From Chloroflexota bacterium (GTDB lineage: Bacteria > Chloroflexota > Dehalococcoidia > Lucifugimonadales > JADFKI01): a stretch of DNA of 64,000 nt. The number at the start of each line of letters is the position of its first letter. The stretch's first letter is position 1. The DNA lies in NCBI GenBank assembly GCA_027623195.1, contig JAQBUT010000005.1, positions 31,464 to 95,463 of the forward strand, written 5' to 3'. The notes beneath the pieces are model-generated. The model was not told the origin of the DNA. It worked only from the letters and a program-made list of their open reading frames with translations, and did no database searches. This document shows, piece by piece, positions 20,260 through 40,985 of this stretch. The translations under genes and the position numbers were made by a program.

Positions 20260-20296
20260 GTCGGTCTTGCTCCTGACGATAAATGGCGAATAACGC

Positions 20297-21976: not shown

Positions 21977-22202
21977 AATTCCTCACTTGTTCAGTACTGT
22001 AATTGGGGAAATGTTACCACAAGCCCAGGCCATTCCAAAAATCAAAGTCAGACCCTCCTAGCAGGTAGCCGGGCTGCCCGCGCATTGCCCCTGCATGAAA
22101 ATACGCAGCCAAGCCGATAATGCAAAATATTTGGTGTTGAGGGGAAATCTGCCCTATAATGCCGCCAACATCGGACTGACTTAAATATCGGAGGCAGAAC
22201 AC

Positions 22203-22991
22203 ATGAGACCTAACCTACTTAGAGAGAAGCTAAATGCTGGCAAGCCCACCGTAAGCACCCACATCCACACCACATGGCCATCGGTGGTTGAGGTTCTAGG
22301 GCACACAGGGTTATACGATTACGTAGAGTTCGTGGCAGAGTACGGGCCCTCGGACCTGCACGACCTGGACAATCTATGTCGTGCGGCCGAGCTTTACAAC
22401 CTGGGAAGCATGATAAAGATAGACCAGAGCGCCCAGGCCTTCCTTGCCCAACGAGGCGTGGGCTCAGGCTTCAACAGCGTCCTGTTCACAGACGCCCGCA
22501 GCGCCGAAGACGTTCGCGGGTGTATCCGCGACGTCATGCCGGACACGCCCGAGGACCAGGGTATGTATGGAGTCGCCACGCGACGAAACTCCTATATGGG
22601 TTACGGCGGTTCAAAAGAGTACGTCAAGTCTCTTCAGGAAACCGTAATCGCCTTGATGATCGAGAAGAGGGGCGCGGTAGAGAACCTTGATGAGATTCTT
22701 GAGATTCCCGGCATCGATATGGTGCAGTGGGGCGGCGCAGACTACTCCGTTAGCATCGGCAAGGCCGGGGAGCGCAATCACCCGGACGTCGTGGCAGCTA
22801 GAGACAAGGTTTTCAAAGCCTGTATCGCCAAAGGAATAGCGGCCAGGGCCGAAATAGGTTCTGCCGACGAAGCAAAGATGTACCTGGACATGGGTGTACG
22901 CCACTTCTCCATTGGAACTGACGTAACCATCCTGTACAACTTCTGGAAGAAGGAAGCCGACGCCATGTGGAAGGCCTTAGACGGCGCGTAG
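22203..22991 (+). CDS. HpcH/HpaI aldolase family protein
   Basis: 262 aa. DYVEFVAEYGP..., MIEKRGAVENLDEILEIPGIDMVQWGGADYS pattern of the PF03328 aldolase/citrate-lyase family. Confidence 0.8.
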   Translation: MRPNLLREKLNAGKPTVSTHIHTTWPSVVEVLGHTGLYDYVEFVAEYGPSDLHDLDNLCRAAELYNLGSMIKIDQSAQAFLAQRGVGSGFNSVLFTDARSAEDVRGCIRDVMPDTPEDQGMYGVATRRNSYMGYGGSKEYVKSLQETVIALMIEKRGAVENLDEILEIPGIDMVQWGGADYSVSIGKAGERNHPDVVAARDKVFKACIAKGIAARAEIGSADEAKMYLDMGVRHFSIGTDVTILYNFWKKEADAMWKALDGA

Positions 22992-23211
22992 GCTAATCTG
23001 GAAACCACTATGAATTGCAGCGAGCTAGCGACCAGTTCCGATCTCTTGCCCACCTAAAAATGTGTTCCGGAGTTCGATGGACTGGTCGCAGCGTAACTTT
23101 TTTGCGGATTCGCATCTCATTTAGTTATGAGCTAATTTGCATCGGATAGGAGAACTTCATGCTGAGAATAAATAGGTTAAGGATCTTCCTTCTGTTGATG
23201 ACATTGTTGGC

Positions 23212-24312
23212 GTGGCCATTCCGGCGGTTATATCGGCGAAAACTAACCAGCCACCTGTTGATGTCTCGCGGGTCACCGTGTGCCATCAACCAGGGAGCAG
23301 TGATCAGGAAACGTTGTCCATGTCAATGGACAGTGCCCATCCTCATTTCCAACATGGCGACGCGCTAGGACAGTGCACTGCGCCGGTTCCATCCAGCGTA
23401 TTCGATCCTTCGGTTGACCTGTCGAACGGATATCACGTTGCCGAGATTAACGACGGTATCTATTGGGTCACCGACGGAACCTACCAGATGATGTTCGCCA
23501 CCACAGGTGTTGGAGTCATCGTGGTAGACGCTCCCCCGTCAATTGGCGGCAACATCCTTAACGCTATCAGCGATGTCACTAGCGAGCCTATTACACACGT
23601 TATTTACACCCATTCGCACGCCGACCACATTGCAGGGGCAGGCGTTCTCCCCACGAGCGCGACTTTCATTTCGCACCAGTCGGTTGCCGAGACCCTTACC
23701 CGAAATGGTGCAGACGATACTATCAAGTTTCCGCCATTCGGATTATTCATAGGTGGTGGTCCGGTACCCCTGCCGACTTTAACCTTCACGGGTACATATA
23801 CGCTGACAGTGGGCGACAAAACCCTCGAACTAATGGAAATAACACCGAACCATGAAGAGGGGAACATAGTCGTTTTTGCCCCGGATCAAAAAGTGGCAAT
23901 GCTGGTCGACGTAATTTTCCCCGGCTGGTCGCCATTCAAGAGCCTGGCCCTAGCCAAGGACGTTCCTGGATTCATCCAGGCTCACGACGATCTCTTGGCG
24001 CTGGATTGGGACACGCTGGTTGGAGGACACGTCACGCGCCTTGGCACAAAGGCTGACGTAATTACTCAACGCGACTACGTCATGGACATTCGAGGGAATG
24101 CAATCACTGCGCTGGCAACCACAGACTTCCTCGGAATTGCGCAGCAGACCGGTTTCACTAATCAGTGGCTACTCTTTGACACATATCTAAATTCGGTGGC
24201 GCAGAAGTGCGCAGACCTGACCGAACCGGCATGGGTAGACCGCCTCGGAGGCGTGGACGTATTTACAATAAGCCACTGCCATGCCATGGCGGAAAGCCTT
24301 CGAATAGACTAA
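23212..24312 (+). CDS. MBL-fold metallo-hydrolase
   Basis: HxHxDH motif (YTHSHADHIAG) and downstream His/Asp ligands. GTG start at 23212. A signal-peptide-like ORF in another frame starts at 23159 (see findings). Confidence 0.75.
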   Translation: MAIPAVISAKTNQPPVDVSRVTVCHQPGSSDQETLSMSMDSAHPHFQHGDALGQCTAPVPSSVFDPSVDLSNGYHVAEINDGIYWVTDGTYQMMFATTGVGVIVVDAPPSIGGNILNAISDVTSEPITHVIYTHSHADHIAGAGVLPTSATFISHQSVAETLTRNGADDTIKFPPFGLFIGGGPVPLPTLTFTGTYTLTVGDKTLELMEITPNHEEGNIVVFAPDQKVAMLVDVIFPGWSPFKSLALAKDVPGFIQAHDDLLALDWDTLVGGHVTRLGTKADVITQRDYVMDIRGNAITALATTDFLGIAQQTGFTNQWLLFDTYLNSVAQKCADLTEPAWVDRLGGVDVFTISHCHAMAESLRID

Positions 24313-24343
24313 TCGCTGGTTCTTATATTCGAGCTATATCACG

Positions 24344-24383
24344 CCACGAGATGGTGAGACCACTTTGTCTCACCATCTCGTGG
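24344..24383 (+). terminator. 17-bp perfect hairpin downstream of the MBL hydrolase gene
   Basis: CCACGAGATGGTGAGAC-CACTTT-GTCTCACCATCTCGTGG. No clear U-tract follows, so intrinsic termination is uncertain. Confidence 0.4.
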
Positions 24384-24446
24384 CCTAACAACCACAGAAC
24401 TTCGGACAAATGACTTGGGTCTCAGGGCCCGCATAGAGGACTGAGT

Positions 24447-25337
24447 TTGAAGCTAGGCCTTACGATACCCAACAATTGGGGTCTTGAAGACCCGCAGGAC
24501 GTACTTAACATCGCGGTAAAGGCTGAGGAGCAGGGGTTCGACTCGGTGTGGGTCAACCACCACGTCTTCAACGCAGGCTACATATATGAGCGCCTGGGCC
24601 ACAAGCCATATTACGACGCGCTGATGACGCTGGCATACGCAGGCGCCATGACCAAGAAGGTACGGCTGGGCACAACCATCCTGGTGCTGCCCTACCTTAA
24701 CCCAATGGTGCTGGCCAAAGAGTTGGCCACGCTGGACGTATATTCAGGCGGGCGGGTCATCGTTGGCGTGGGCGTTGGAGCGCTGAAGCCCGAATCCGAC
24801 GCGCTGGGCAGCGACTACAGCACGCGAGGCCGGTACGCCGACGAGGGTCTGGCCGTGATGAAGGAGCTTTGGACTCAGGAGGAGCCTAGCTTCAACGGTA
24901 GGTTCTTCCAGTTCTCCGGCGCAGTATTCTCGCCCAAGCCGCTGCAGAAACCACACCCTCCATTGTGGATTGGCGGCACCAGCGACGCGGCGCTAAAGAG
25001 GGTGGCCCGTCTGGGCGACGGCTGGCACCCGAACCGCATGTCGGCGGACAAGATGCGCGAGAGCCTGGCCAAGCTCCAAGTACACCTCGACGAGCAGGAC
25101 CGCAGCATGGACGAAATAACCTTATCTGTCCGTGCCGAGCTTAGCGTCCTGTCAGATGCCTCGACTAACACGGAAGAGCCGCTGGTCGGAACGCCACAGC
25201 AGATTGCGGACGCCATGAAGGGCTTTGAAGAGCTAGGCGTAAAAGAGGTCGTCATGCAGATAGGTTCTTTGGACGCTGCCCACATTAACAAGGTAATGGA
25301 CGATTTTGCCGATAAAGTGATGCCTCTGGTCCGATAA
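24447..25337 (+). CDS. LLM-class (luciferase-like) flavin/F420-dependent oxidoreductase
   Basis: MKLGLTIPN..., FDSVWVNHH, LATLDVYSGGRVIVGVG, PPLWIGG motifs. TTG start. Confidence 0.8.
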   Translation: MKLGLTIPNNWGLEDPQDVLNIAVKAEEQGFDSVWVNHHVFNAGYIYERLGHKPYYDALMTLAYAGAMTKKVRLGTTILVLPYLNPMVLAKELATLDVYSGGRVIVGVGVGALKPESDALGSDYSTRGRYADEGLAVMKELWTQEEPSFNGRFFQFSGAVFSPKPLQKPHPPLWIGGTSDAALKRVARLGDGWHPNRMSADKMRESLAKLQVHLDEQDRSMDEITLSVRAELSVLSDASTNTEEPLVGTPQQIADAMKGFEELGVKEVVMQIGSLDAAHINKVMDDFADKVMPLVR

Positions 25338-25364
25338 ATCTATCCCAAAAGACTGACGTGTTAA

Positions 25365-26021
25365 ATGAACGATTCAAACCTTTCGGATGACGCCCCGGGA
25401 ACCATTCTTTTCCCCCAGTTCGAAGACCTGATATACGACATGATTGCTGTAGAGGTCAGCGGGCTTGCAGACCAACATTTGGATTTCGAATCCGACAGGT
25501 GGGGCTGGAGCGCATGGAGCATCCGGCGCAACGTCAGTCACATGGCGTCGGGCGACTTCCGATGGCTGTTGCAGCGTTGGGGAAAGCGCCTGTTTACCAA
25601 GGGCGTGCCGCAAGTGGACGACCTGGACCGCATCCTTTCAACAGAGTTCGACCGGCGGCTGGACGAGAACGTTTACTGGCAAATCGAGGACATCACAGGA
25701 GTGCTGCGGCGTAGCCTGGATCTGGCGTGGTCGGTGCTGTCGCAGGAGACAGTTGCTTCCCTGCGGAGCAAGGAGCTTCGGGTCAACATCGGCGGCCTGC
25801 CCTGGGCCGAAGTGCATCCCAACGGCGTACGGGTAGACCCTGCCGACCCTACGCAGGCAGACGTTACGCTTGAGGCGACCTTCCGCCACCGCTACTTCGA
25901 GTACATAACCCATCTGTACAACATCCAGCGACTAAAAAGGGCGCAGGGTTTGACAACCAGCGTTAACATACCCTTTGAAGGTTACTGGGCCGCCAAAGGC
26001 TGGGACCGCAGCGAACCCTAA
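25365..26021 (+). CDS. Hypothetical protein (possibly DinB/YfiT-like)
   Basis: 218-aa ORF with coding-like composition between two LLM genes. Weak resemblance to DinB-type helical bundle proteins (W/H-rich N-terminal half). Function not supported. Confidence 0.35.
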   Translation: MNDSNLSDDAPGTILFPQFEDLIYDMIAVEVSGLADQHLDFESDRWGWSAWSIRRNVSHMASGDFRWLLQRWGKRLFTKGVPQVDDLDRILSTEFDRRLDENVYWQIEDITGVLRRSLDLAWSVLSQETVASLRSKELRVNIGGLPWAEVHPNGVRVDPADPTQADVTLEATFRHRYFEYITHLYNIQRLKRAQGLTTSVNIPFEGYWAAKGWDRSEP

Positions 26022-26118
26022 CGCCCACCAACGAATATTTGGTTGAGCAAAACAAGCAACCTTCGGGCATCAACTTTGAATTCCAACACCAACCCAATAT
26101 CCAAATGAGGCCAGAATA

Positions 26119-27054
26119 ATGAAGATTGGGATGTCGCTCACGAGCAGTTACCCCGGTACCGGCAACACCAAGACCATCATGGACAACCTGATTGAAGAGG
26201 TTGAGTTGATGGCCAAGCTGGGTTTCGACTCCCTGTCGCTGGGTGATCACCACGTCACCACCAACGACTACATTCAGGTCCTGCCAGCCATGTCTCGGCT
26301 TTCAGCGTACAGCGGGGACATGCAGCTACTGCCGCTCTTCCTCCTGCCATTTTACAATCCCATACTCCTGGCGGAGCAGCTAGGAACTCTGGACGTAATG
26401 TCTGGCGGAAAAACGACGATAATCTGCGCGTTGGGGCACCAGCCCGAGGCCCACGTGGCATACCAGACACCCCAGCGAGTCCGTGTATGCCGCTTCGTGG
26501 AGACCTTTGAAATCCTCAAACTGCTGTCGTCGCAAGACAACGTCTCCTACCAGGGCAAACATTACGCCTTCGAGAACGTCTCCATCAGTCCCAAGCCGTT
26601 GAACCGACGCCTGCCCATGTGGATGGGGTGCAGCGCCGACCTGGCGGTGCGGCGTGCGGCCCGACTGGCGGACGCCTGGGTTATCGAACCCGGGTGGCCC
26701 CCAGACACTATCGACCGCAAGCTGGGCGTTTACAGAAGCGAGTTGGGAGAGTTGGGTCGCACCGACGAAGTAAGCGAAACGATTTTGCGACGGGACATCC
26801 ATCTGGCTGCCACCAATGACGCAGCCCGTAGCCAGGCTCGGGGCCTTTTCGAAAAAGGATATCGAGGCTACGGCGCCCAGCAGATGGCCGAGTCTCTGAT
26901 CGTCGGCGGACCGGACGAGTGCGTGAGCTACATTCAGAGGATGGAGGAGATGGGGATTAATCACCTGCTGTTCCGCTGCGCGCTGGACGACAGGGCGAAT
27001 GCGATGCAGACCATCCAGATGCTGGGCGAAGAGGTCATCCCCAGATTTCGATAA
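26119..27054 (+). CDS. LLM-class flavin-dependent oxidoreductase
   Basis: MKIGMSLTS..., FDSLSLGDHH, LGTLDVMSGGK, LPMWMG motifs, 311 aa. Confidence 0.8.
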   Translation: MKIGMSLTSSYPGTGNTKTIMDNLIEEVELMAKLGFDSLSLGDHHVTTNDYIQVLPAMSRLSAYSGDMQLLPLFLLPFYNPILLAEQLGTLDVMSGGKTTIICALGHQPEAHVAYQTPQRVRVCRFVETFEILKLLSSQDNVSYQGKHYAFENVSISPKPLNRRLPMWMGCSADLAVRRAARLADAWVIEPGWPPDTIDRKLGVYRSELGELGRTDEVSETILRRDIHLAATNDAARSQARGLFEKGYRGYGAQQMAESLIVGGPDECVSYIQRMEEMGINHLLFRCALDDRANAMQTIQMLGEEVIPRFR

Positions 27055-27181
27055 TGCCTTACCATCAGGGCACGGTGGCATCCAATAATCATGGTTCTTA
27101 TATTTCAGGCATGACAGATGCTAATTGTATCGCCACGACGGGTCATTCCCAGTGGAGCGAAGTGAAAAGGACGAAAACATC

Positions 27182-29473
27182 ATGACGAGCACCGCAGACA
27201 AACCCCGAAAATTCAACGTGTTGGGCACTCGCCCGATTAGGCCCGACGGCCTGGACAAGGTAACCGGACGCGCCATGTTCGGGGCCGATTTCAATATATC
27301 GGGACTGTTGCACGGAAAAATTCTTCGGAGCCCTCACGCCCACGCCAAAATCCTCTCCATAGACACCAGCAGAGCCATGGCGCTCCCTGGTGTGAAGGCG
27401 GTAGTTACGGCCATAGACCTCCCCATAGTCCGCACGACGACCCGCGATCTTTCCCAGGCACGTTCCGATGCCAGAACGGTGGCGGAAAACGATCTAGCCT
27501 ATGACAAGGCGCTTTACAAGGGCCACGCCATAGCGGCTGTGGCAGCTACCAGCCCGCACGTGGCGGAGGAGGCTTTAAAGCTTATAGACGTGGAGTACGA
27601 GGTGCTTCCGGCGGTGGTCAATGTACTGGACGCCATGAAGGACGGCGCTCCCATTCTTCACGAAGACCTGACGACGATGTACCGCACTGCCAACTTCGCC
27701 AGGGGAGAAGACACGGGCGTTAAGGGCAACATTGCCGGCCATATCCAGATCAAGCACGGCGACGTGGAGCAGGGCTTCCGTGAGGCCGACGTTATCGTCG
27801 AGCGGGAGCTGAACACGTCCATGGTGCATCAGGGCTACATCGAGCCATTCGCATCCACGGCCCACTGGACTCTGGACGGACGGGTTACCATCTGGACCAG
27901 CACACAGAACGCCTTCGGAATGCGGGCCACCGTCTCCGAGATTATCGACGTGCCCGAGTCCATGATTAAGGTTGTACCTCTTGAGGTCGGCGGCGGGTTC
28001 GGGGGTAAAGGCACCGGCTATTTCGAGCCGGTCATCGCCGTGCTTTCCCAAAAGTCAGGTCAGCCAGTAAAGGTGGTCATGTCTCGGCAAGAAGTCTTCG
28101 AGGGCACAGGCCCCACGTCCGGCGCGTCCATGCGTTGCAAGATAGGCGCGGACAGCTCGGGCCGAATCACGGCAGCTGAGCTCTGGATGGCCTACGAGGC
28201 AGGGGCGTTCCCAGGATCACCCGTGAGCGGCGGTGCATTCCCCGCATTTGGAGCTTACAAGATCGAAAACCTGCTGGTGGACGGCTACGACGTAGTCTGC
28301 AACCGACCCAAGACACAGTCATACCGCGCTCCCGGCCAGCCTCAGTCCGCCTTTGCCGTGGAGACCGTTATGGACGAAGTTGCCGAGAAGCTAGGCATGG
28401 ACCCAATAGAACTCCGGTTGATAAACGCTGTGGATGAGGGTGACCGCGCACCCACCGGCCTGCGCCACACCCGGTTCGGATGCAAAGAGGTCGAGGAGGC
28501 CATGAAGACGCATCCACACTACAACGCTCCTTTGACTGGACCGAACCAGGGCCGAGGTGTCGCTGTGGGATATCGCATGCACGCTGGCGGCAACGGGTCC
28601 TCGGCAACCATTCACGTAAACGATAATGGAACCATAAATCTGGTTACCGGGTCGGCCGACCTCTCCGGAAGCCGAATCTCGCTGGCTATGCAGGCAGCGG
28701 AGGCGCTGGGGCTGAATCACGACGACGTAAAGCCGTCGGTGGTGGACACAGACTCAGTTGGCTTCACCGCAGGCTCATACGGCAGCCGCATCACCTTCGA
28801 CACAGGACGCGCCGCCATCAAAGCGGCGGACGAGGTTGTCAGGCAGATGAAAGAGCGGGCCGCCCTTCTATGGGAGGTGCCGGCGGAGGATGTGGAGTTC
28901 TCAGATGGCAAGTTCATCTGCTCGAAGAACAGCGAAGACCGGTTCACGTTCAAGGAATTGGCCCGGCGCCTGATGGAAACCGGCGGGCCTATCACCTGCT
29001 CCGCCTCCGACAGACAGGGCGGCGTGGGCCCACAACTTGCCGGCAACATAGTCGACGTTGAGGTGGACCCCGACACCGGCAAGGTCACCATATTGCGGTA
29101 CACTACGTTCTTGGACGTCGGCCAGATCGTGCACAAGAGCAACGTGGAGGGCCAGATGCAGGGCGGCGTGCTTCAAGGCGTAGGCTGGGCGCTTAACGAG
29201 GAGTACTACTACAACGACGATGGAGCGATGCTGAATACGTCGCTATTGGACTATCGCATGCCCACTACCGTGGACCTGCCGATGATAGACACCGTTATCA
29301 TAGAAGTACCCAACCCGCGTCACCCATTCGGTCTGCGAGGCGTCGGGGAGTCCCCGATAGTGCCACCGCTTGCTGCGCTGGCAAATGCGGTTCACGCGGC
29401 AACGGGCGTTCGCATGACCAGATTGCCAATGTCGCCGGGCGCAATTTTAGAGGCGATTAACAACCAAGACTAG
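27182..29473 (+). CDS. Xanthine dehydrogenase/aldehyde oxidase family molybdopterin-binding (large) subunit
   Basis: About 763 aa from the ATG at 27182. N-terminal a/b hammerhead region (GRAMFGADF...LHGKILRSPHAHAKI), GGGFGGK motif and C-terminal Mo-cofactor-binding domains. The ORF-track start at 27125 is a TTG. Confidence 0.85.
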   Translation: MTSTADKPRKFNVLGTRPIRPDGLDKVTGRAMFGADFNISGLLHGKILRSPHAHAKILSIDTSRAMALPGVKAVVTAIDLPIVRTTTRDLSQARSDARTVAENDLAYDKALYKGHAIAAVAATSPHVAEEALKLIDVEYEVLPAVVNVLDAMKDGAPILHEDLTTMYRTANFARGEDTGVKGNIAGHIQIKHGDVEQGFREADVIVERELNTSMVHQGYIEPFASTAHWTLDGRVTIWTSTQNAFGMRATVSEIIDVPESMIKVVPLEVGGGFGGKGTGYFEPVIAVLSQKSGQPVKVVMSRQEVFEGTGPTSGASMRCKIGADSSGRITAAELWMAYEAGAFPGSPVSGGAFPAFGAYKIENLLVDGYDVVCNRPKTQSYRAPGQPQSAFAVETVMDEVAEKLGMDPIELRLINAVDEGDRAPTGLRHTRFGCKEVEEAMKTHPHYNAPLTGPNQGRGVAVGYRMHAGGNGSSATIHVNDNGTINLVTGSADLSGSRISLAMQAAEALGLNHDDVKPSVVDTDSVGFTAGSYGSRITFDTGRAAIKAADEVVRQMKERAALLWEVPAEDVEFSDGKFICSKNSEDRFTFKELARRLMETGGPITCSASDRQGGVGPQLAGNIVDVEVDPDTGKVTILRYTTFLDVGQIVHKSNVEGQMQGGVLQGVGWALNEEYYYNDDGAMLNTSLLDYRMPTTVDLPMIDTVIIEVPNPRHPFGLRGVGESPIVPPLAALANAVHAATGVRMTRLPMSPGAILEAINNQD

Positions 29474-29611
29474 TACGCCGTATAGCCGAAGCTATCCTAT
29501 GAATTGACGCTTTGGGTGGTGCGGCGATAAAATCACGCCCAACCCCCCGCTTATATACCAGGTAATCAACAGGGCTGGGGCAACGCCTCAGGTAAGGAAA
29601 AGGGTGAGATC

Positions 29612-30604
29612 ATGGGACAGATTGTTATTGGCATGGGTTCGTCTCACAGTCCGCAGTTAAGCACGCCGTCAGAGTTGTGGCTAAACCACGGCGAGGGTGA
29701 CAAGCATAATCCCGCCCTGCTAGATAACAGGGGTGTGCATCGCACCTTTGAGGAGTTGCTGGAGATTGCCCCTGCCAACATCGCACAGCAGTTGGCTCCT
29801 GAAAAGATGGAAGAACGCCATCAGGCTAACCAGCGCGGAATTGCCCGACTGGCAGAGGCCTACGTCAACGCTAATCTCGACGCATTAGTAATCATTGGCG
29901 ACGACCAGGAAGAGATGTTCCGGAACGATCATCGGCCAGCAATAGCCGTCTATTGGGGCGAGACATTCGTCAATGGCGCGGTGCATATTACGCCGGACAT
30001 GTCTGAGGCTCGAAAGGCTTCCGCGTGGGGCTGGCGAGAGCCGGACGGTGAGAGGTCCTTCCCGGTGGCTGCAGACATAGGCCTGCATTTAATCGAACAC
30101 CTGCGAGAACAGGACTTTGATATCGCCCATATTAAGCAGGTCCCTGATTGGCACACCCAGATGGGACATGCCTTCGCCTTCGTCTACCGTCGCATTATGC
30201 AGGAGAATATCATTCCCACCATTCCCATCATGGTGAATACCTATTATCCGCCCAACCAGCCAACGCTAAACCGCTGTTACCAGTTGGGGCGCGAGATCAG
30301 GGCCGCCGTGGAATCCTGGCCCGCTGGCATACGCGTTGGAGTCATCGCCTCCGGAGGTCTGAGCCACTTCGTAATCGACGAGGACATGGACCAGCAGGTG
30401 ATGAAGGCGCTTCGCGAAGGTGACAAGGACGCGCTGGTCTCTCTGCCCAGGGAGCGGATGGACTCGGGCACATCGGAGATACGAAACTGGATTGCCATGT
30501 CTGGCGCCTCTGAGGGGCTCAGCCACCAGTGGTCGGATTACGTACCCAGCTACAGAACAATGGCAGGCACAGGATGCGCCATGGGTTTCGGCATCTGGGC
30601 ATAG
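29612..30604 (+). CDS. Class III extradiol ring-cleavage dioxygenase (LigB family)
   Basis: 330 aa. N-terminal GMGSSHSPQL, internal HxF and GGLSHF motifs typical of LigB/protocatechuate 4,5-dioxygenase-type enzymes. Confidence 0.7.
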   Translation: MGQIVIGMGSSHSPQLSTPSELWLNHGEGDKHNPALLDNRGVHRTFEELLEIAPANIAQQLAPEKMEERHQANQRGIARLAEAYVNANLDALVIIGDDQEEMFRNDHRPAIAVYWGETFVNGAVHITPDMSEARKASAWGWREPDGERSFPVAADIGLHLIEHLREQDFDIAHIKQVPDWHTQMGHAFAFVYRRIMQENIIPTIPIMVNTYYPPNQPTLNRCYQLGREIRAAVESWPAGIRVGVIASGGLSHFVIDEDMDQQVMKALREGDKDALVSLPRERMDSGTSEIRNWIAMSGASEGLSHQWSDYVPSYRTMAGTGCAMGFGIWA

Positions 30605-30689
30605 CGTATTATCAGGCAATCAACGAAAGGCCATATTCGCAGGAGGTCAATATCGGAAGTCACAACATCTGGTTGCGAGGGGGTAAAGC

Positions 30690-31799
30690 TTGGAAGGAGC
30701 ATACAGGGCAGACCATATAGGTAGCCTGCTCAGGCCAATCGAAGTGAAGGAAGCTCGGGCGGCATTCCGTAGCGGTGCCATAAACCGCAGGCAACTGACG
30801 GCAGTGGAGGATCGCGCCATACAGGTAGCCCTGGAACGCCAACGCCAGACCGGAATCGACGTTTTCTCCGATGGCGAGTTCCGTCGCTCCAGCTTTCAAA
30901 ACGACCTCGCGGAATCAGTGGATGGTTACGTGGCCTCTGAGGTACCTTCAGTCGTCCGCATGTGGCAAGGTCCCGGCGGCGAACCCCAAGAACAGGGTAC
31001 GAACCTGGTAGTCGGAGGAAAGCTACGTCCCCGGCGCCGCCTTACCAGGCAGCAAACCGCCTTTCTGAACGACCATGCCCCCGGCCCATTCAAGATTACG
31101 CTGCCCAGTGCCAATCAGTTCCCCACTATTAGCTACCAGGAAGGCCTCACCGACAAATTCTACCCTACCCGCTCGGACCTGCTTTGGGAGATCGTAGGAA
31201 TCCTGAAGAACGAAGTGCAGGCGCTGGTGAACGACGGCGTGTCCTACATTCAAATAGATGCGCCAAGGTACAGCTACTTTGTCGATCCCAAGTGGCGGCA
31301 GCACCTTAAGGACATGGGACAGGACCCAGACAAGCTTTTTGAGGAAGCGGTGCAGGCAGACAACGCCTGTCTTGAGGGTGTGGAGCGGGACGGCACCACG
31401 CTGGCTATGCACATCTGCCGAGGCAACAACCAGAGCAAATGGTACGCCCAGGGCGGATATGAGCCCATCGCCGAAAAGCTGTTCGGTTCGCTGAATGTGG
31501 ATAGGTTCCTGCTGGAATACGACACGGAGCGCGCAGGGACTTTCGAGCCACTAAGATTCATACCCAGTAACAAGATGGTAGTGCTTGGGCTTGTCAGCAC
31601 CAAGGACCCTACCCTGGAAACTGAAGACGAAATACTGCGCCGTATCGACGAGGCATCGAAGTTCGTAGCTCTGGAACGGCTAGCCCTGAGCCCGCAGTGC
31701 GGATTTGCATCTACGGAGGCTGGCAACCTTCTCACAGAAGACCAGCAGTGGCGCAAGATGCAGCTAGTGGTAGAGGTTGCCCGCAAGGTCTGGGGCTGA
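30690..31799 (+). CDS. Cobalamin-independent methionine synthase-like (MetE C-terminal/UROD-fold) protein
   Basis: YRADHIGSLLRP start, IQIDAP, HICRGN and SPQCGF motifs (Zn-binding His/Cys pattern). TTG start. Confidence 0.7.
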   Translation: MEGAYRADHIGSLLRPIEVKEARAAFRSGAINRRQLTAVEDRAIQVALERQRQTGIDVFSDGEFRRSSFQNDLAESVDGYVASEVPSVVRMWQGPGGEPQEQGTNLVVGGKLRPRRRLTRQQTAFLNDHAPGPFKITLPSANQFPTISYQEGLTDKFYPTRSDLLWEIVGILKNEVQALVNDGVSYIQIDAPRYSYFVDPKWRQHLKDMGQDPDKLFEEAVQADNACLEGVERDGTTLAMHICRGNNQSKWYAQGGYEPIAEKLFGSLNVDRFLLEYDTERAGTFEPLRFIPSNKMVVLGLVSTKDPTLETEDEILRRIDEASKFVALERLALSPQCGFASTEAGNLLTEDQQWRKMQLVVEVARKVWG

Positions 31800-31883: not shown

Positions 31884-33029
31884 GTGAAATGTAGCACCGA
31901 CCGAATACTTACCACCCATACGGGCAGCCTACCGCGCCCACCTGAACTGGTGGCGATGATGCAGGCGAAGGAAGACGGCAACCCCTTCGACCAGAAGGCC
32001 TTCGATGAGCGGGTTCGCACAGCCGTTGCCGATATCGTCAGGCTTCAGGTAGAGGCAGGCATCGATATAATCAGCGACGGGGTGCAGGGCAAACCCAACT
32101 TTGCCACGTACGTGAAGGACCGGATTGCCGGGTTTGATGGTGTGAATCCCGAACCTCGAGTGTTTGGTGACCGCAGGGCCTTCCCTGAGTGGAACGCCAC
32201 AACCACCTCCAGCAAGCTGATGAACGGGGTTCGACTACTGTGTACCAACGAGCTAAGCTGGAAAAACCAGTCAGCAGTTGGAATCGACATTGATAACTTT
32301 CGAGCGGCGCTGACCGACAACTCTGCGGAAGACGCATTTATTCCGTCAGCATCGCTGGGCATCATTGCGGAGATAATTCGCAACACGCACTACCCAAGCG
32401 AAAAGGCGTACCTGTACGCGCTAGCCGACGCCATGAAGGTGGAGTACGAGGCAATAGCGAACGCAGGTTTCGTATTGCAAATCGACGCTCCGGATGCCGC
32501 CCTCGGCAGGCACGCGCAGTTCTGGGACAAGAGTCTGGACGACTTCAGGTCTTCCCTGGCGCTACGAATAGAGGCTCAAAACCACGCTCTGGCCAACATC
32601 CCAGAGGAGCAGGTGCGGTTCCACCTGTGCTGGGGCAACTACGAAGGCCCGCATACTGAAGACGTGCCCCTAAAAGACATCGTAGACATAATTCTGAAGG
32701 TAAACGCCGGTGCATACTCTGTGGAGGCGTCCAACCCCCGTCATGCCCATGAATGGCAAGTGTGGCAGGATGTGAAGCTGCCGGACGGCAAGACCCTAAT
32801 CCCAGGCGTTATAGACAGCACTACCAATTTCGTGGAGCACCCGGAGGTGGTGGCAGAGCGCCTCACCCGTTACGCAAACCTGGTGGGCAAAGAAAACGTC
32901 ATTGCCGGGACGGACTGTGGCTATGGCACCACTGCCGAGTTGGCCAGAGTACACCCCACGGTCATGTGGGCGAAGTTCCGCTCGCAGGCGGAAGGCGCAC
33001 GCCTGGCCAGCGAACGGCTGTGGGGCTAA
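31884..33029 (+). CDS. Cobalamin-independent methionine synthase-like protein, second paralog
   Basis: ILTTHTGSLPRP, LQIDAPD, HLCWGN and GTDCGYG motifs. GTG start with GGAAAGG upstream. Confidence 0.7.
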   Translation: MKCSTDRILTTHTGSLPRPPELVAMMQAKEDGNPFDQKAFDERVRTAVADIVRLQVEAGIDIISDGVQGKPNFATYVKDRIAGFDGVNPEPRVFGDRRAFPEWNATTTSSKLMNGVRLLCTNELSWKNQSAVGIDIDNFRAALTDNSAEDAFIPSASLGIIAEIIRNTHYPSEKAYLYALADAMKVEYEAIANAGFVLQIDAPDAALGRHAQFWDKSLDDFRSSLALRIEAQNHALANIPEEQVRFHLCWGNYEGPHTEDVPLKDIVDIILKVNAGAYSVEASNPRHAHEWQVWQDVKLPDGKTLIPGVIDSTTNFVEHPEVVAERLTRYANLVGKENVIAGTDCGYGTTAELARVHPTVMWAKFRSQAEGARLASERLWG

Positions 33030-33133
33030 AAGGCTTTTTCATATATCGGGCGTTGGTGATTCAAGACAGACAGGAAATCTCGGTAGTCCAAAAAAGCTGA
33101 TCGACCCCAGCCATGTGCTGTAACTGCCAGATT

Positions 33134-33168
33134 AAAAAAAGGGCCCTGGCCGCATTTGGCCAGGGCCC
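33134..33168 (-). terminator. Rho-independent terminator after the MCP gene
   Basis: GGGCCCTGGCC-GCATTT-GGCCAGGGCCC, an 11-bp stem. The A7 run at 33134-33140 gives a U-tract on the minus strand. Confidence 0.6.
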
Positions 33169-33217
33169 CATTTCCGCTTTGCACGATTAGACTGCGCTAA
33201 GCTTAAGAGTCGTCCTG

Positions 33218-35245
33218 CTAATTAGAGTCGGAGGCCAGGACCGCCAGCCTGTCGGTCGTCTGCCCGGAAGCGACATCGCTATCCAGACGGAATGCTGCCA
33301 CTGCCCCTTGGAGAACTCGCGTCATAGCGTCCAGCTCCTGAGTCGATGCCACTACTTCTTCGACCTGGGCGCTCATCTCCTCAGCAGATGCGCTCATCTC
33401 TTCGGTAGCAGCGCTGTTTTCCTCTGAAACTGCAGTGATGCTCTCGATGGCCTTGGAGACTTCAGTGCTATTGGCGGCCATTTCTTCGCTTGCCGCGCTG
33501 TTTTCTTCAGTTATGGCGCTTACTTCGCCCATGGTCTTCACCATGTCGGCGCTGGAGGCAGTGACCTGCTCGGCTGATGCGGAGATCTGCTCGATCTGAT
33601 TTCCGACACCCTCAACAGATTCCATGATATTGGCCAGAGCCTTGCCTGCCTCTTCGGCAAGCTTGACGCCCTCGGCCACTTCCTGGGTTCCGTCCTCAGC
33701 TGCCTTTATGGACTCCGCTACGCCCTTCTGGATGTTATCTATGAGGCCAGCGATTTCCTTGGTTGCGTCGGTGACTCGCTCTGCCAGGCCCCTAACTTCG
33801 TCGGCCACAACCGCGAATCCTCGACCCTGCTCACCCGCTCGCGCCGCCTCGATTGCTGCGTTTAAGGCCAGAAGGTTGGTCTGAGCCGCAATGTCGTCGA
33901 TGACGGCGACGATCTTGCCTATCTCCTCGGACTGTGCGCCCAACTGGGTGATCTGATTAGAAGCCTCAGCCATTGCCGAGCTGATCTTGCCCATGCCGAC
34001 GATGGTCTGATTTACCATTTCGCCGCCGTTCCGGGCCGCTTCGCTGGTCTGGCGTGAACCAATTGCAGCCTCCTGCGCACTTCGAGCAACTTCACTGATG
34101 GCCGTGGACACCTGGTCTACGACGCTGGAGGCTTGCTCTACGCCCTGGGCTTGCTCCTGGCTACCCTTGGCTATCTGTTCTATTGCGGCAGAGAGCTGCT
34201 GCATGGACTGGGTAGTCGCCTGGATGCTCTCGGTCTGCTGACTGGTTCCCATGGCCACCTGCTGACTCACCTGGGTAATACCTGTGGTGGCCTGACCTGC
34301 CTGGTCGGCAGCACTGGCTAACTGTGAGCTCGCCGCTGCCAAACCAGTGGCAGTGCTCCTTACCTGACCGATAATCTCCATAAGGTTGTCGACCATCTGA
34401 TTGGTGTTGCCGCCCATGTCCACCACCTCGTCAATCATCTTGTTAAAGGCAGTGGCCATGTCACCTATTTCGTCTTTGGATTTAACTTGCACATGTTCCA
34501 TTTGGACGTCGGCTTTCACAGTTAGGTTGCCATCGGCCACTTCCCTTGTTACCCGTGACAGGGCTGGCAACAGTCGTTCTGCCAGTTCAGTGGCAGCATC
34601 GCCGACACTACGCACGCCATTGGATATGCTCCGAGACAGCAGGAATCCCATAACCATGGCGACGACTGCAGCGAGTACCGAAATGACGATTATGAGTGTG
34701 ATTGCTGTCTGCTCGGTGGACTCAGCAGCGGCGAAGGATTCTTCCATTTCCAGCTCTATGAGGTGGACGAGCTCTGCAAGCTCCACCTCCATCTCCTCTT
34801 CCTCAGCGACCATGATGTGAAGGGAGTTCAGTCCGCCTGCCGCGTCGCCTGCCCTATACAAGCTTGCGAGGAGTTCACCCGCTATAATGAACTCTTCGTA
34901 CTGGTCCTCAACTAGGAAGAGCAAATCCAGAGCTTCGTCGTTGCCTCGCAACTGGTCCTCCAGCTGTGCGGACTCTTCATGAATCAGGTCCGTCTGATGC
35001 CTGGCTTGTTCAAGGACGGCCTCGTCCAGGGTCAGGGCGTACTCGAAGTAAAACTCGGTCTGGAGGGCAAGCTGCAATTCCAGATCCTTAGCCTCCTCGA
35101 CTTGGGGCAGCGACTCGTGCACTATGTGGTCTGCGGCGGCTCCCATAGAATTAAGGCCGTTCCAGCTTACGCCGAAGACCACCAGCAGCATGGCAACTAC
35201 TACTAAGAAGCCGCCAATCAATTTCGCTCTAATATTCAACTTCAT
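33218..35245 (-). CDS. Methyl-accepting chemotaxis protein (TM - helical periplasmic sensor - TM - HAMP - MA domain)
   Basis: Highly conserved signalling hairpin [34 protein letters not shown]. Two TM segments flank an acidic ~150-aa sensor region. AGGAGGAG SD upstream. Confidence 0.9.
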
Positions 35246-35281
35246 GACTCGGTCACTCCTCCTATTTGTGTGGGTGTATTT

Positions 35282-37042
35282 TTAGAATTCCCCAATGGTC
35301 CGGCTATTCAACGGCTGAACTGGCCGTGCGTTGCCTCCGAATATCGACATGAACTTATCCATCTGGGCCTTGGAGGCCTGTACCGGCTCCTGTACTACGA
35401 ACCACTTAACGCCTTCCGAACACGGGGGGGTGGTAAGCGAACCATCGAACGCGAAGTATTGAGCCTCGCTAGGGAGGATGTCCGTAATGCTGATTCTAAG
35501 GTCCGAAGCTACGTTGCCCTCTTCTCTGGGAAGGAAGTCCCAGAACTTGGCGAAGAGAGGGTTCTCCTCGCCGCTTTCGAATAGCACGCCGATGACGCCA
35601 AGACCGCCCCCGGCGTTCTTGTGGACCAGGTGCATTTCCATGGGGTACCTGCCGCCGTCCACGGAGTTTTCGCTAGGTGTATGGAAATGGAACTGCAGAA
35701 GGTCGTACTCTCCACCGTCCAGGTAGGCCACGCTGCCTGAATCGTAGTTAATCTGGATTGTGTGGCCGTTGTTAAGAATTGTTACGACCGTATCGCCGTA
35801 GTTAGTGAAGACGGAATTATCGGCGCCGACTGTAAATCTCGAGTCGATGTCAATTGGAGATTGCTCCACCCCGGTCTTGCAGGCGATGTAGTCGTCGGCC
35901 AGGTCTCCCCAGTAATTCGGGCCCGAATTGCCCTCGTAGGTCCAGTGAGGAGGGCCATCACCATGATCACCATTGCTAACCGTGGTGTCTCCGTGGTCAG
36001 GAGCGACCCCATGGGCATCGCCAGTGCTCCCGCCGGAAATGAGTCTTGCATGCAGAGGCTGCACCGGGCGATTGTTGTGCCCCAATATTCCGTTGAAAGC
36101 CGAGATCTGATCCCCGGACATCTCGATTGGGGTGCTCATGACGTTCCAGTTCACGCCTTCGCTGCATGGCGGCGTGGTGAGGGAACCGGAGTATGTATAG
36201 ATCTCCCTGTCGTGAGGTAGCATGGACTCGACGTTTACGTTGACGCCATGAACCTCTTTTACCTCACCTGCGCCGTGAGGCAGGTTTGCAACAAGCGACT
36301 GGAAGAAGGGGTTGGAATGACCCTCTTCGATGAATACGCCAACTACGGCCAGTTCGCCGCTCGCGCTCTTATGTACCAGGTGTCCCTCCATAGGGTAGTT
36401 CTGGGAGCTAACCTGATGCTCAGAAGGCGTATGGAAGTGGAACTGAAGCAGCTCGTACTGCTCGTGGTCGATGACTATCGAGCTGCCGGGCGCGTAATTC
36501 ACCTGCAAAGTGTGGCCGTTGTTCAGGATGCTCAACGGCACGTCGTTGTAGTTGAATTGAATGCTCGCTGGCTGGGCAAAGGCCGAGCCGGCAATGTCAA
36601 TTGGCGACTGGCTGGTGCCCGCCTTGCAGGCGATGAACTCGTCTGCCAGGTCTCCCCATTTGCTCGGACCGAGGTCTCCCTCGTAGGCCCAGTGGGGCGC
36701 GGCGCTGCCATGATCCGTGCTGGCAGGAGCGGCATGGCCCGTAGCAGGTGCTGCATGGTCTGTACTGGCTGGTGCAGCATGGCCCGTAGCGGGAGCGGCA
36801 TGGCTGTCGGCGGGAGCAGCGTGATCCGTGCTGGCAGGTGCAGCATGTGTATCTGAGGTCGCGACGCGCGACACCCTGGTCCTAGTCCTGGCACCGCTTT
36901 CCGCATCGCTGCTATCGGCAGCAGAAGCGGAAGTGCCACAGCCCGAAAGGACTAACAAAAGGGCAAATGCCAGCGCCGATAAAGCGATGGCATACCCTTT
37001 GCCCTTAAAAAGGGCCGTTCTAAGGTTTTGATCACTGATCAT
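35282..37042 (-). CDS. Lipoprotein with two tandem alpha-class carbonic anhydrase domains
   Basis: Lipobox VLSGC. Two copies of the alpha-CA signature set: HW(A/T)YEG, QSPIDI, LLQFHFHTPSE, HLVH and GSLTTPPCSEGV. All three Zn-ligand His residues are conserved in both domains. Confidence 0.85.
   Translation of the reverse strand: MISDQNLRTALFKGKGYAIALSALAFALLLVLSGCGTSASAADSSDAESGARTRTRVSRVATSDTHAAPASTDHAAPADSHAAPATGHAAPASTDHAAPATGHAAPASTDHGSAAPHWAYEGDLGPSKWGDLADEFIACKAGTSQSPIDIAGSAFAQPASIQFNYNDVPLSILNNGHTLQVNYAPGSSIVIDHEQYELLQFHFHTPSEHQVSSQNYPMEGHLVHKSASGELAVVGVFIEEGHSNPFFQSLVANLPHGAGEVKEVHGVNVNVESMLPHDREIYTYSGSLTTPPCSEGVNWNVMSTPIEMSGDQISAFNGILGHNNRPVQPLHARLISGGSTGDAHGVAPDHGDTTVSNGDHGDGPPHWTYEGNSGPNYWGDLADDYIACKTGVEQSPIDIDSRFTVGADNSVFTNYGDTVVTILNNGHTIQINYDSGSVAYLDGGEYDLLQFHFHTPSENSVDGGRYPMEMHLVHKNAGGGLGVIGVLFESGEENPLFAKFWDFLPREEGNVASDLRISITDILPSEAQYFAFDGSLTTPPCSEGVKWFVVQEPVQASKAQMDKFMSIFGGNARPVQPLNSRTIGEF
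36710..36847 (-). repeat. Coding tandem repeat HAAPA(S/T/D)(T/G/S)(D) x6 in the CA N-terminal linker
   Basis: Protein reads THAAPASTDHAAPADSHAAPATGHAAPASTDHAAPATGHAAPASTDHGSAAPHW. The DNA shows the reiterated unit GTGATCCGTGCTGGCAGG.GC.GCATG. Confidence 0.8.
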
Positions 37043-37630
37043 GATTCACCTCTAGCATAGTTTTGTTCTTCAAAGGTCGGATTCTGCTCGACACTCAGAA
37101 TCAGGTAAAAGCTATATTTAAGGTCCCTCGGCTTATCCGAAGGCCACGAACATGCCAACTAATTTCAATCGCTATGAAAAGTCGTTGCATTTTTTTGACG
37201 ATGTAGTCTCATATAAACGACAGAAACCGTCATAAACGTGATATCTGTACTTGTATGGGAGACTAACGGCTGAGGCTATTACCTATTTCTGCGCGAGGGG
37301 ACGGCGGCGGTGACATTTCCCGCCGGGCACCGACTCAAGGGTCCTGGGCATAGGCTGGAGGCACTTAATGGGTTTCACTGAGTGCGCGACAAGGCCTTTT
37401 CCCATCCGAATCTCAGTCTGGCCTGAAGGGGCTGTGGGCGCGACTTAAATCCGTTGAGCAATTCACAAATGCTTCCTACACGGAGGAAGTCGTTCTCGGA
37501 TTTACCAGACCTAGAACGTCTCGTCAGGAAATTGACACCAGTCCAGAGCGGGTGCTACGGTCTCCGCATCCTACACGTGCTTTCAGACGTCAGAACAATG
37601 CACATGGAATATCGATCAGAGGGAGAGTTC

Positions 37631-38443
37631 ATGGTTTCACAAGGCAAGCGGTTGCAGGGAAAGGTCGCCATAGTGACCGGCGCAGGTTCAAGGGGACCGG
37701 GAGTTGGGACCGGCAAGGCCACGGCTACGCTTTTCGCGCGGGAGGGGGCCAAGGTACTCCTGGTAGACAACGTAATCGCACGAGCCGAAGAAACTCTTGC
37801 TTCCATACTTTCCGAAGGGGGCGAGGCATCAGTCATAGAGGCCAACGTAACCGTCGAGGCGGAGTGCGAGCAGATCGTTCTCCAGGCTGTGGAGCGCTAC
37901 GGCGGACTTAACATCCTCTTCAACAACGTTGGCATTGGCGCGCCAGGCACGGTGCTGGACGTGACGGAGGAGGATTTCACGCGAGTCATCGATACGAACC
38001 TCAAGAGCATGATAATGCTGAGCAAATACGCTGTGCCCAAGATGATAGAGGCGGGGTCCGGCTCGGTTATCAATATGTCGTCAATTGCCGGCATAAGAGC
38101 GGGAAGCAGCGGGGCCAGCATTTCCTACGCCGTTTCCAAAGGTGGCGTAATAGCGCTCACAACTCAGATGGCTGTGCACCACGGACGACAGAACGTTCGC
38201 GTGAATTGCATAGCGCCAGGACCGCTTTACACACCCATGGTGGCACATCGGTTGTCCGAAGAGGCACGGGAGCTGAGACGAAAGAGCAATCCCCTGGGAT
38301 TAGAGGGGACAGCCTGGGACATCGCGTGGACGGCGCTATTCCTGGCCAGCGACGAGGCTCGATGGATTACGGGCGTTACCCTGCCCGTAGACGGAGGCGT
38401 GCTGGCAACAACACCTCTCTCAATGCTGGAACACCTGCGGTAG
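37631..38443 (+). CDS. SDR-family oxidoreductase
   Basis: TGAGSRGPGVG cofactor motif, NNVG, and a YxxxK-region (YAVSKGG). The ATG at 37631 is preceded by GAGGGAGAG. The ORF-track start at 37454 adds an implausible 59-aa extension. Confidence 0.85.
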   Translation: MVSQGKRLQGKVAIVTGAGSRGPGVGTGKATATLFAREGAKVLLVDNVIARAEETLASILSEGGEASVIEANVTVEAECEQIVLQAVERYGGLNILFNNVGIGAPGTVLDVTEEDFTRVIDTNLKSMIMLSKYAVPKMIEAGSGSVINMSSIAGIRAGSSGASISYAVSKGGVIALTTQMAVHHGRQNVRVNCIAPGPLYTPMVAHRLSEEARELRRKSNPLGLEGTAWDIAWTALFLASDEARWITGVTLPVDGGVLATTPLSMLEHLR

Positions 38444-40496: not shown

Positions 40497-40985
40497 TCAG
40501 AGTGATTCCCCTCTCGCGATCCTGTCTGCTTCCTTCAAGAACAGTTCCTTTCGGGACTCAGACAGTCCTTGGAAAGTACGCACCAGACGCCGTTCGTCAT
40601 CCAGAGGGTGTTCCTGGGGGTTTTGCCGTTTCTCTATCAGAGCCTCGATTCGCTCGAGGAAATTTTCCACATCGAAGGGCTTAATCAGAAAATCGTCGGC
40701 ATCGATCTGTTTACTCTGGAGTACTGAAAATTCACTTGATACACCGGACATCATCAAGATCGAAGCGTCCGAGACACCGCGAGCCGCTCGGCAAAATTCA
40801 TGTCCGTCCATTCCAGGCATCCAGACATCAGAGACTATTATGTCAGGGCTGTAGTTCTCCAATATCTCAAGCGCCCGTTCCGCTGATTCGGCAACCTCAG
40901 TCTTGTAGCCGGCATCCTCCAACACGTCCTTGAGTATTTCGCGCAAAGCCTGCTCATCGTCAACGATAAGGATATTATTTGGCAT
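40497..40985 (-). CDS. Response regulator receiver protein with short C-terminal extension
   Basis: ILIVDDEQ...VSDVWMPGMDGHEF...IKPF receiver signature, plus a ~40-aa charged tail with no recognisable output domain. Confidence 0.8.
   Translation of the reverse strand: MPNNILIVDDEQALREILKDVLEDAGYKTEVAESAERALEILENYSPDIIVSDVWMPGMDGHEFCRAARGVSDASILMMSGVSSEFSVLQSKQIDADDFLIKPFDVENFLERIEALIEKRQNPQEHPLDDERRLVRTFQGLSESRKELFLKEADRIARGESL

Follow-up and report, generated by a model that had tools for sequence, protein, structure and literature searches.

Does a carbonic anhydrase encoded directly ahead of a chemoreceptor merely share a locus with it, or do the two proteins form a sensory unit? The question is raised by a 64,000-nucleotide stretch of a Chloroflexota genome (assembly GCA_027623195.1, contig JAQBUT010000005.1, positions 31,464 to 95,463; the whole stretch is called the window here), in which an earlier note had described an alpha-carbonic anhydrase (CA) lipoprotein gene and a chemoreceptor (methyl-accepting chemotaxis protein, MCP) gene as a candidate module for taxis in response to CO2, bicarbonate or pH. 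Comparison of the window with related and unrelated loci indicates that the CA-MCP pair is a genuine module that has been conserved and has evolved convergently. We assign a probability of roughly 45% to the reading that it acts as an enzyme-coupled CO2 receptor unit, mediating taxis along gradients of CO2 or acidity and probably steering the archaellum. The core of the locus is laid out as follows.

35282-37042, minus strand: alpha-CA lipoprotein gene, 586 amino acids (translation of the open reading frame)
35246-35281, minus strand: CA-MCP spacer of 36 nucleotides (nt), carrying the Shine-Dalgarno sequence AGGAGGAG
33218-35245, minus strand: chemoreceptor (MCP) gene, 675 amino acids (translation of the open reading frame)

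All nine close CA relatives with a readable genomic context (54-77% identity; P0002/L005, P0008/L008, P0013/L009, P0015/L014, P0024/L012, P0022/L025-26, P0068/L027, L013 and L015) are followed directly downstream, on the same strand, by an MCP of the same sensor family. The pair is kept in at least seven different flanking contexts among proteins that are 50-77% identical, so the adjacency in related genomes, which the earlier note had singled out for checking, is borne out. Whereas the window pair lies between SDR and Meth_synt_2 genes, the L005 pair has a response regulator and a histidine kinase as neighbors, and the L008 pair a PAS-HAMP protein and che genes. The flanks comprise a GAF-HisKA protein and an insertion sequence (IS) element in L009, Fur in L012, a nitroreductase together with che genes in L013, DAHP synthase in both L014 and L027, and IS elements in L025. 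Spacers between CA and MCP in the Chloroflexota relatives mostly measure 22-120 nt; that of L015 is longer, at 228 nt. Every Chloroflexota locus derives from a metagenome-assembled genome (MAG) or a metagenome, the relatives being labeled as Chloroflexota or Dehalococcoidia MAGs, and the Chloroflexota examples are not phylogenetically independent of one another; in the long-read assemblies L013 and L025-27, CA, MCP and cheA carry frameshifts that may be sequencing errors. The identical CA protein is also recorded in the Chloroflexi MAG GCA_027619385.1 and in three metagenome assemblies. As a side observation, DDE-family IS elements are frequent around CA-MCP loci (L021 8789-9989; L009 10668-11868; L025 2131-5705).

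Viewed from the sensor side, 11 distinct Chloroflexota lineages carry the CA and four lack it (L016, L018/L023, L019 and L024). Among the CA-less loci, L018, L023 and L024 are syntenic with the CA-bearing L014/L027, and L019 is syntenic with L013, the alignment resuming on either side of the missing gene; the losses are therefore secondary. In L024, a frameshifted vestige of the signal peptide and lipobox of the CA survives about 100 nt ahead of the MCP start, and the neighboring coding DNA of L018 is 89-92% identical to that of L027. The sites of in-place CA deletion map to L024 4300-4583, L018 7012-7505 and L019 2542-3301. Two outgroups complete the comparison: L028 encodes a multi-domain CA, 45% identical, with no MCP, and L029 encodes a sensor that is 36-38% identical, in which the conserved sensor motif described below is absent, with no CA.

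The same arrangement recurs outside the phylum. In a gammaproteobacterial MAG (L030 5001-11542, also L031), a Sec-exported tandem alpha-CA is followed after 67 nt by a four-helix-type MCP, and the locus continues with a soluble MCP, cheY, a STAS-domain protein and cheA. The sensor of this MCP is a remote relative of the Chloroflexota sensor at best (hhalign probability 68%). A search of a plasmid collection found the pair in Skermanella only, on megaplasmids of three cultured species (S. mucosa, S. rosea and Skermanella sp. TT6; L032 3983-8399, L034 4004-6865 and L042 2677-7088), where an alpha-CA with a Tat signal precedes, by 26-27 nt, a 678-residue MCP whose helical sensor of about 265 residues is not homologous to that of the window (hhalign probability 0.4%). 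In two of these three loci a PAS-MCP comes next, and an AI-2-type ABC transporter adjoins the unit. Azospirillum B510 encodes a 34% identical homologue of the Skermanella MCP with no CA beside it.

In a rough neighbor-joining tree, the Skermanella CA falls with rhizobial CAs lacking MCP linkage, and the two gammaproteobacterial domains are each other's closest relatives; by this rough tree, the MCP-linked CAs are polyphyletic. The pairing thus appears to have arisen separately in Chloroflexota and in two proteobacterial lineages. Control loci gave no sign of it: no MCP gene lies closer than 3.5 kb to the CA gene in any of eight other alpha-CA loci (Sinorhizobium, Rhizobium, Mesorhizobium, Bacillus, three Vibrio and E. 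coli). The independent recurrence of the pairing with different sensors is our strongest argument for the CA reaction as the link between the two genes.

Related loci also indicate the pathway that the receptor may feed. In both L008 and L013 the gene order is CA-MCP-cheW-cheA-cheX-cheD-cheY, with cheB farther downstream in both and cheR in L013, and in L018, L019 and L023 cheW comes next after the MCP, accompanied by cheA or cheY as far as the contig permits. The signaling domain of the window MCP is 62-71% identical to those of the che-linked MCPs. L008 and L013 have the F1 gene set (cheA/W/Y, cheC/X, cheD, cheB and cheR), and L018, L019 and L023 have part of it; its assignment to the F1 class rests on gene content and on a 2026 preprint, according to which archaellum-bearing Chloroflexota carry F1 Che systems (bioRxiv 10.64898/2026.05.11.724246), not on CheA phylogeny. 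From the gene order in L008 and L013 and this gene set, the ancestral layout was likely a che operon headed by CA-MCP, from the rest of which the pair split in the window lineage. As for the organelle, where the earlier note had thought of flagellar or pilus motility, cultivated SAR202 and many Dehalococcoidia encode archaella, not flagella (PMC10444878, PMC12488501), making the archaellum the probable organelle in this phylum.

Two further genes of L008, at 1111-2265 on the minus strand (upstream of CA-MCP) and at 16406-17581 on the plus strand (in the che cluster), encode receiver domains fused to a KaiC-like ATPase (PF06745). The archaellum regulator ArlH is KaiC-like as well, and these fusions could be the missing link from CheY signaling to the archaellum. 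The CheF adaptor is reported to be absent from Chloroflexota (PMC12488501). Within the window, a stand-alone receiver of 162 residues lies 3.5 kb upstream of the CA gene (40497-40985, minus strand) and is 29% identical to the CheY of a related cluster.

In the window, the pair very probably forms a bicistronic operon, as we infer from the gene layout: both genes lie on the same strand, the spacer is short, no terminator lies inside, and both neighboring genes are on the opposite strand. Since it is bracketed by one convergent and one divergent gene, the pair should make up a transcription unit of its own. Its boundaries and neighbors are these.

33130-33169, minus strand: intrinsic-terminator-like hairpin of 12 bp (10 of them GC) with a T-run, about 50 nt past the MCP stop, closing the unit
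37043-37630, no strand assigned: divergent intergenic region from the CA start to the SDR start, 588 nt, the presumed promoter or regulatory region
31884-33029, plus strand: Meth_synt_2-like gene, the downstream neighbor, convergent on the terminator hairpin
37631-38443, plus strand: SDR gene, the upstream neighbor, divergent from CA

The open reading frames and the same-strand gap of 36 nt lie exactly where the earlier note had placed them, and its other statements on the layout were reproduced. These comprise a strong Shine-Dalgarno sequence for the MCP (AGGAGGAG at 35263-35256, its last base 10 nt ahead of the ATG); the lack of an intervening terminator, in that the spacer and the 3' end of the CA gene contain neither a predicted terminator-like hairpin with T-run nor a predicted sigma-70-like site; a terminator past the MCP, predicted as a GC-rich hairpin with T-run at 33169-33130 on the minus strand; and a gap of about 590 nt ahead of CA, which amounts to 588 nt given that the public gene call puts the SDR start at 37631. 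GC content falls to 0.49 in this upstream region. A sigma-70 consensus scan found no promoter on the minus strand, either upstream of CA or anywhere else, and is for that reason uninformative for this organism. Rfam gave no family near the CA-MCP unit or in its upstream region, and no nucleotide similarity was detected between 37043-37630 and the upstream regions of related loci. We considered a conserved regulatory leader 5' of CA and rejected it. About 400 nt at 70-84% identity are shared among L014, L018, L021, L024 and L027, and as the adjacent coding DNA of these loci is itself 83-92% identical, the upstream likeness reflects ordinary relatedness.

The CA itself is built from five consecutive parts, all on the minus strand.

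36938-37042, minus strand: signal peptide with lipobox L-S-G-C (Cys35), read from the sequence
36695-36937, minus strand: low-complexity tether of 81 residues with His-rich DHAAPA/GHAAPA repeats
36008-36694, minus strand: alpha-CA domain 1, residues 117-345 (Pfam PF00194)
35948-36007, minus strand: inter-domain linker, acidic and His/Gly-rich, GDAHGVAPDHGDTTVSNGDHGDGPP, with DHGD repeats
35285-35947, minus strand: alpha-CA domain 2, residues 366-586 (Pfam PF00194)

With a basic n-region, a hydrophobic h-region and the sequence LLVLSGC, which matches the lipobox pattern [LVI][ASTG][GA]C, the N-terminus predicts a lipoprotein anchored to the outer face of the cytoplasmic membrane, and a lipobox-like motif precedes the Cys in all Chloroflexota CA homologues. 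The tether comprises 7 His, 22 Ser/Thr and 38 Ala/Gly/Pro; homologous tethers span 74-186 residues with 4-17 His, keeping the composition but not the sequence. Pfam PF00194 (Carb_anhydrase) matches two stretches of the protein (300 bits versus a cut-off of 27, E=2e-89), and the two domains are 51% identical to each other. Both carry His64, His94, His96, Glu106, Glu117, His119, Thr199 and Thr200 when aligned to the human CA II sequence, and both keep the Cys of the disulfide of extracytoplasmic alpha-CAs. Judged by these residues, both domains should be catalytically intact. Single-domain CAs of relatives are of the domain 2 type: those of L012/L022 are 75% identical, and in L015 and L021 the CA clusters with domain 2 of L009/L014. 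The His-rich tether and linker might act as a proton antenna or buffer, bind Zn, or make pH-dependent contact with the polyanionic sensor.

The receptor has the topology of a transmembrane (TM) chemoreceptor, with TM1 (residues ~9-28), an ectodomain (29-180; window 34706-35161), TM2 (~181-203), a HAMP domain (229-274) and a signaling domain (397-576). Pfam recognizes MCPsignal (PF00015; 162 bits, 1.5e-47) and HAMP (PF00672; 41 bits, 2.5e-10). The sensor family 4HB_MCP_1 (PF12729) scores 25.5 bits on the window MCP, below its gathering cut-off of 27, and precomputed matches to it exist for homologues. An AlphaFold2 model of residues 1-282, with a pLDDT of 85-92 across the ectodomain, contains helices at residues 5-42, 47-72, 75-98, 103-131 and 135-237; TM1 runs into helix 1, and the last helix is continuous through TM2. 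The ectodomain is accordingly modeled as a four-helix bundle, in which helix 1 kinks at the invariant His43-Glu44-x-Leu-Pro47 (residues 43-46). For the cytoplasmic part, the closest solved structure is T. maritima TM1143 (2CH7, E=1e-29), with one 7-residue gap. The ectodomain holds 38 Asp/Glu versus 4 Lys/Arg, corresponding to a pI of 4.05 and a net charge of about -35. Of the acidic, helical, periplasmic sensor that had been described before, the acidic and helical character stands; the word "periplasmic" has to be read as the outer face of the cytoplasmic membrane, the only one that the monoderm Chloroflexota have (PMC12488501, PMC10444878).

Across the sensor family, His43, Glu44, Leu46 and Pro47 are invariant (18/18 members), and His40, His143, His161, Glu164 and Glu168 are kept in 17-18 of the 18. 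Further conserved positions on helices 1 and 4 include many Glu, Gln and Tyr, and more distant members retain the core I-V-H-E-x-L-P-E only. The family is small and known so far from Chloroflexota only: it yielded 8 matches in an index of 5.8 billion proteins, 35 among 1.84 billion cluster representatives (E<=1e-3), and 8 loci in 185,579 species genomes, all from Chloroflexota/Dehalococcoidia. Scanning JGI metagenomes with the sensor alignment added 2 loci, both without CA.

Some family members differ outside the sensor. Around its HAMP domain the window MCP has about 22 extra residues (window 34550-34630; MCP residues ~205-228 and ~240-262), a sequence shared with P0121, P0122, P0123, L009 and L025 and absent from the other family members, and the MCPs of L014 and L027 carry four to eight additional HAMP-like repeats. 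In L012 (9052-10455) and L022 (10001-11326), the gene after CA is a chimera, near-identical in these two long-read MAG contigs. It joins sensor residues 1-87 to a fragment resembling MCP 477-533 (about 65% identity), to new TM helices and to HisKA_2/HATPase, and is followed by a receiver-GAF protein and cheW. We considered this kinase-type neighbor as a case of the same sensor with a different output domain and set the idea aside, as a chimera is not clean evidence of modular reuse.

How might the two proteins work together? In the enzyme-coupled reading, the lipid-anchored two-domain CA would sit on its long, flexible, His-rich tether at the outer membrane face and would equilibrate CO2 + H2O with HCO3- + H+ almost instantly at the cell surface, on a sub-second scale. 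Uncatalyzed CO2 hydration takes tens of seconds, and chemotactic comparison relies on a memory of about 1 s. We infer that the receptor would read one of the CA products, most likely H+, through the conserved His/Glu cluster; alternatively, it might respond to a cation that binds in a pH- or carbonate-dependent manner. That the sensor binds bicarbonate directly was considered and is judged unlikely, because the ectodomain has about 38 acidic versus 4 basic residues and its conserved residues are His, Glu, Gln and Tyr rather than Arg/Lys; a metal could still mediate such binding. Thus, of the module for CO2, bicarbonate or pH taxis originally put forward, the pairing holds, whereas bicarbonate as the sensed species is improbable for an anionic His/Glu sensor. 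The signal would then pass through an F1-type CheW/CheA/CheY pathway with CheC/X, CheD, CheB and CheR, the output of which in this phylum is probably the archaellum, and the net outcome would be taxis along CO2 or acidity gradients, for instance to or from respiring particles. The CA would serve as an accessory that speeds or sharpens the response rather than as an obligatory subunit, a role that fits its repeated loss from loci in which the receptor is retained.

Several observations weigh against this reading. The four sensor lineages without CA keep an apparently intact MCP with the conserved motif, indicating that the CA is dispensable for keeping the receptor. Several loci are decaying, through IS insertions, truncations and a lost Zn ligand: in L021 an IS element lies between CA and MCP and disrupts the 5' end of the latter, in L009 an IS element truncates the MCP after HAMP, and in L014 the MCP is cut ahead of its signaling domain and CA domain 1 is without the Zn ligand His94 owing to a 2-residue deletion. 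The CA of L012/L022 carries His64Asn and Thr200Ala. A Foldseek search with the ectodomain model returned generic four-helix-bundle sensors only (NarQ, Vc1313, MCP2201, LytS and QseE; E>=8e-4), none of them ligand-specific, and hence gave no clue to the ligand. Exported proteins of this organism are acidic in general (the substrate-binding protein (SBP), pI 4.56; CA domain 2, pI 4.42), so the argument from sensor charge is suggestive, not decisive. In well-buffered seawater, a surface enzyme would cause only a small local pH change, by our own estimate rather than a computation. A promoter inside the 3' end of the CA gene is conceivable. Within the 64-kb window, moreover, we found no che gene and no archaellum or other motility gene. 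On the other side, none of the findings that the earlier note had named as damaging to its proposal was made, and in related loci the pair does head a che cluster.

Three other explanations were weighed against the enzyme-coupled reading. The genes may be linked without any sensory mechanism, the CA serving inorganic-carbon supply or surface pH homeostasis and the MCP binding an unrelated ligand, with the two co-expressed or merely co-inherited. This would sit well with the disappearance of CA from four lineages that kept the MCP, even between relatives as close as L018 and L027, with a tree in which all Chloroflexota cases could stem from one ancestral arrangement, and with the position of most alpha-CAs elsewhere, which are not beside MCPs. 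We nevertheless regard it as unlikely, since the pair persists in at least seven contexts while its flanks change among proteins of 50-77% identity, since the 22-120-nt spacers of most loci are typical of operons, and since the pairing arose in two proteobacterial lineages with unrelated or distant sensors and polyphyletic CAs. We also estimate the chance that an alpha-CA, at 1-2 genes per genome, is the upstream neighbor of any given gene at about 1 in 1,500-3,000. The persistence of the receptor after CA deletion, with its motif intact, speaks, in turn, against the idea that the CA is a co-receptor, which docks on the MCP ectodomain so that the receptor reads the state of the enzyme (its substrate or anion occupancy, its metal loading or the protonation of its tether) and not a diffusing product. 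In favor of a co-receptor, a protonated, cationic tether could bind the polyanionic bundle, the His-rich linker of 74-186 residues with its conserved composition holds the CA in the membrane plane of the receptor, the ectodomain displays conserved surface-type polar faces, and its structural neighbors include sensors solved with partners (LytS-XylFII, 5xsj; QseE-QseG, 9m08). By contrast, a strong negative charge is predicted for both partners at the pH of seawater (-18 and -19 for the CA domains, -35 for the ectodomain), and the proteobacterial CAs are soluble, Sec- or Tat-exported and combined with other sensors, which fits a diffusible product better than a co-evolved interface. Taken together, these points make the co-receptor quite unlikely.

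The sensor might instead detect a metal, its acidic His/Glu bundle responding to Zn2+ or another divalent cation, with CA and tether as zinc clients and metal taxis or metal economy as the outcome. The spacing of His-x-x-His-Glu on helix 1 and of His-x-x-Glu-x-x-x-Glu on helix 4 resembles that of metal sites, the His-rich linkers could bind Zn, and the L012 pair adjoins a Fur-family regulator and a NicO-like transporter. That Fur/NicO context, however, is found in one lineage only, the one with the chimeric receptor, and some family members have Glu, Arg, Gln or Val in place of His40, leaving His43-Glu44 as the only invariant part. The Skermanella and gammaproteobacterial sensors, moreover, are paired with a CA yet lack the motif, so that the element shared by the three pairings is the CA reaction; metal sensing is accordingly very unlikely in our view, and the reading we prefer remains the enzyme-coupled CO2 receptor.

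The genomic setting is that of an ordinary heterotroph. Outside the pair, the window encodes LigB, luciferase-like monooxygenases, a molybdenum hydroxylase, hydrolases and an SBP. Within positions 19810-31799 and 56077-57102, the luciferase-like monooxygenases form several paralogues, and the ring-cleavage dioxygenase of LigB type, two MetE-like genes and the molybdenum hydroxylase are found there too. This catabolic set, rich in paralogues, is similar to what has been described for SAR202-type Chloroflexota, and the many luciferase-like paralogues suggest a SAR202-like organism. CO2 is produced universally by respiration; its perception by free-living bacteria is poorly understood. In its widest form, our proposal would hold that at least three bacterial lineages have independently wired an exported alpha-CA to a chemoreceptor as an enzyme-coupled CO2 sensor, which in SAR202-like Chloroflexota steers the archaellum through an archaeal-type F1 Che system; we advance this version tentatively and consider it possible rather than probable. 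If true, the CA-MCP module would offer a concrete, genetically testable mechanism and would be a prokaryotic counterpart of the CA-dependent CO2 sensing of animal sensory cells. Slow-growing heterotrophs of deep water could use it to approach or shun centers of respiration, guided by the plume of CO2 or acidity. The module would also explain why some bacteria without carbon-concentrating machinery export very fast CAs, and it would supply a first candidate for the signal read by the chemosensory and archaellum system of marine Chloroflexota, which are abundant yet barely culturable. Since Skermanella strains with the pairing are in culture, a test of the idea does not require growing the source organism.

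Among known systems, the nearest parallels in principle come from eukaryotes, in which extracellular CA IV serves on mammalian sour-taste cells and CA II works with guanylyl cyclase-D in mouse olfactory neurons. There, as proposed here, an alpha-CA beside a sensor turns slow CO2 hydration into a supply of H+ and HCO3- fast enough to follow, and the taste-cell case shares in addition a surface-tethered enzyme and the proton as readout. The receptors and cells are different, in that the eukaryotic systems rely on co-expression within a cell type, whereas the window encodes a conserved gene pair with a predicted MCP/CheA array. The flagellar CAH6 of Chlamydomonas is the subject of PMC7595284. Among bacteria, H. 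pylori TlpA and other acid or bicarbonate chemoreceptors (PMC8406319, PMC5245789) are alike in mediating bicarbonate or acid chemotaxis in an organism that also exports a periplasmic alpha-CA. TlpA, however, has a dCache_1 sensor (PMC8406319), whereas the window MCP has a predicted four-helix bundle, and in the literature searched we found no report of an H. pylori CA gene paired with, or required for, a chemoreceptor.

In topology and predicted fold, TM1-four helices-TM2-HAMP, the receptor resembles the 4HB_MCP_1 sensors (Tar/Tsr, MCP2201, PcaY_PP and NarQ/NarX-type). It is set apart from them by its sub-threshold score (25.5 versus 27), by a tiny family confined to a single lineage, and by a helix 1 kinked at His-Glu-x-Leu-Pro, and its conserved pocket positions are Glu, Gln, His and Tyr, where sensors that bind anions or carboxylates typically have Arg/Thr. 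That a sensor can work through a partner protein outside the cytoplasm is itself known, as in MBP-Tar and LuxP-LuxQ. These two, together with QseG-QseE (9m08) and XylFII-LytS (5xsj), likewise combine a helical-bundle TM sensor with an exported or lipid-anchored specificity partner. Their partners are non-catalytic binders or scaffolds, whereas the CA is a predicted fast enzyme with two active sites that likely makes the ligand rather than delivering it. In the full-text literature that we searched, which covers few subscription-journal papers, no chemoreceptor coupled to or encoded with a carbonic anhydrase is described. Chemoreceptors with an accessory extracytoplasmic protein are already known; the new element here, as far as the sequences indicate, would be an enzyme in the accessory role.

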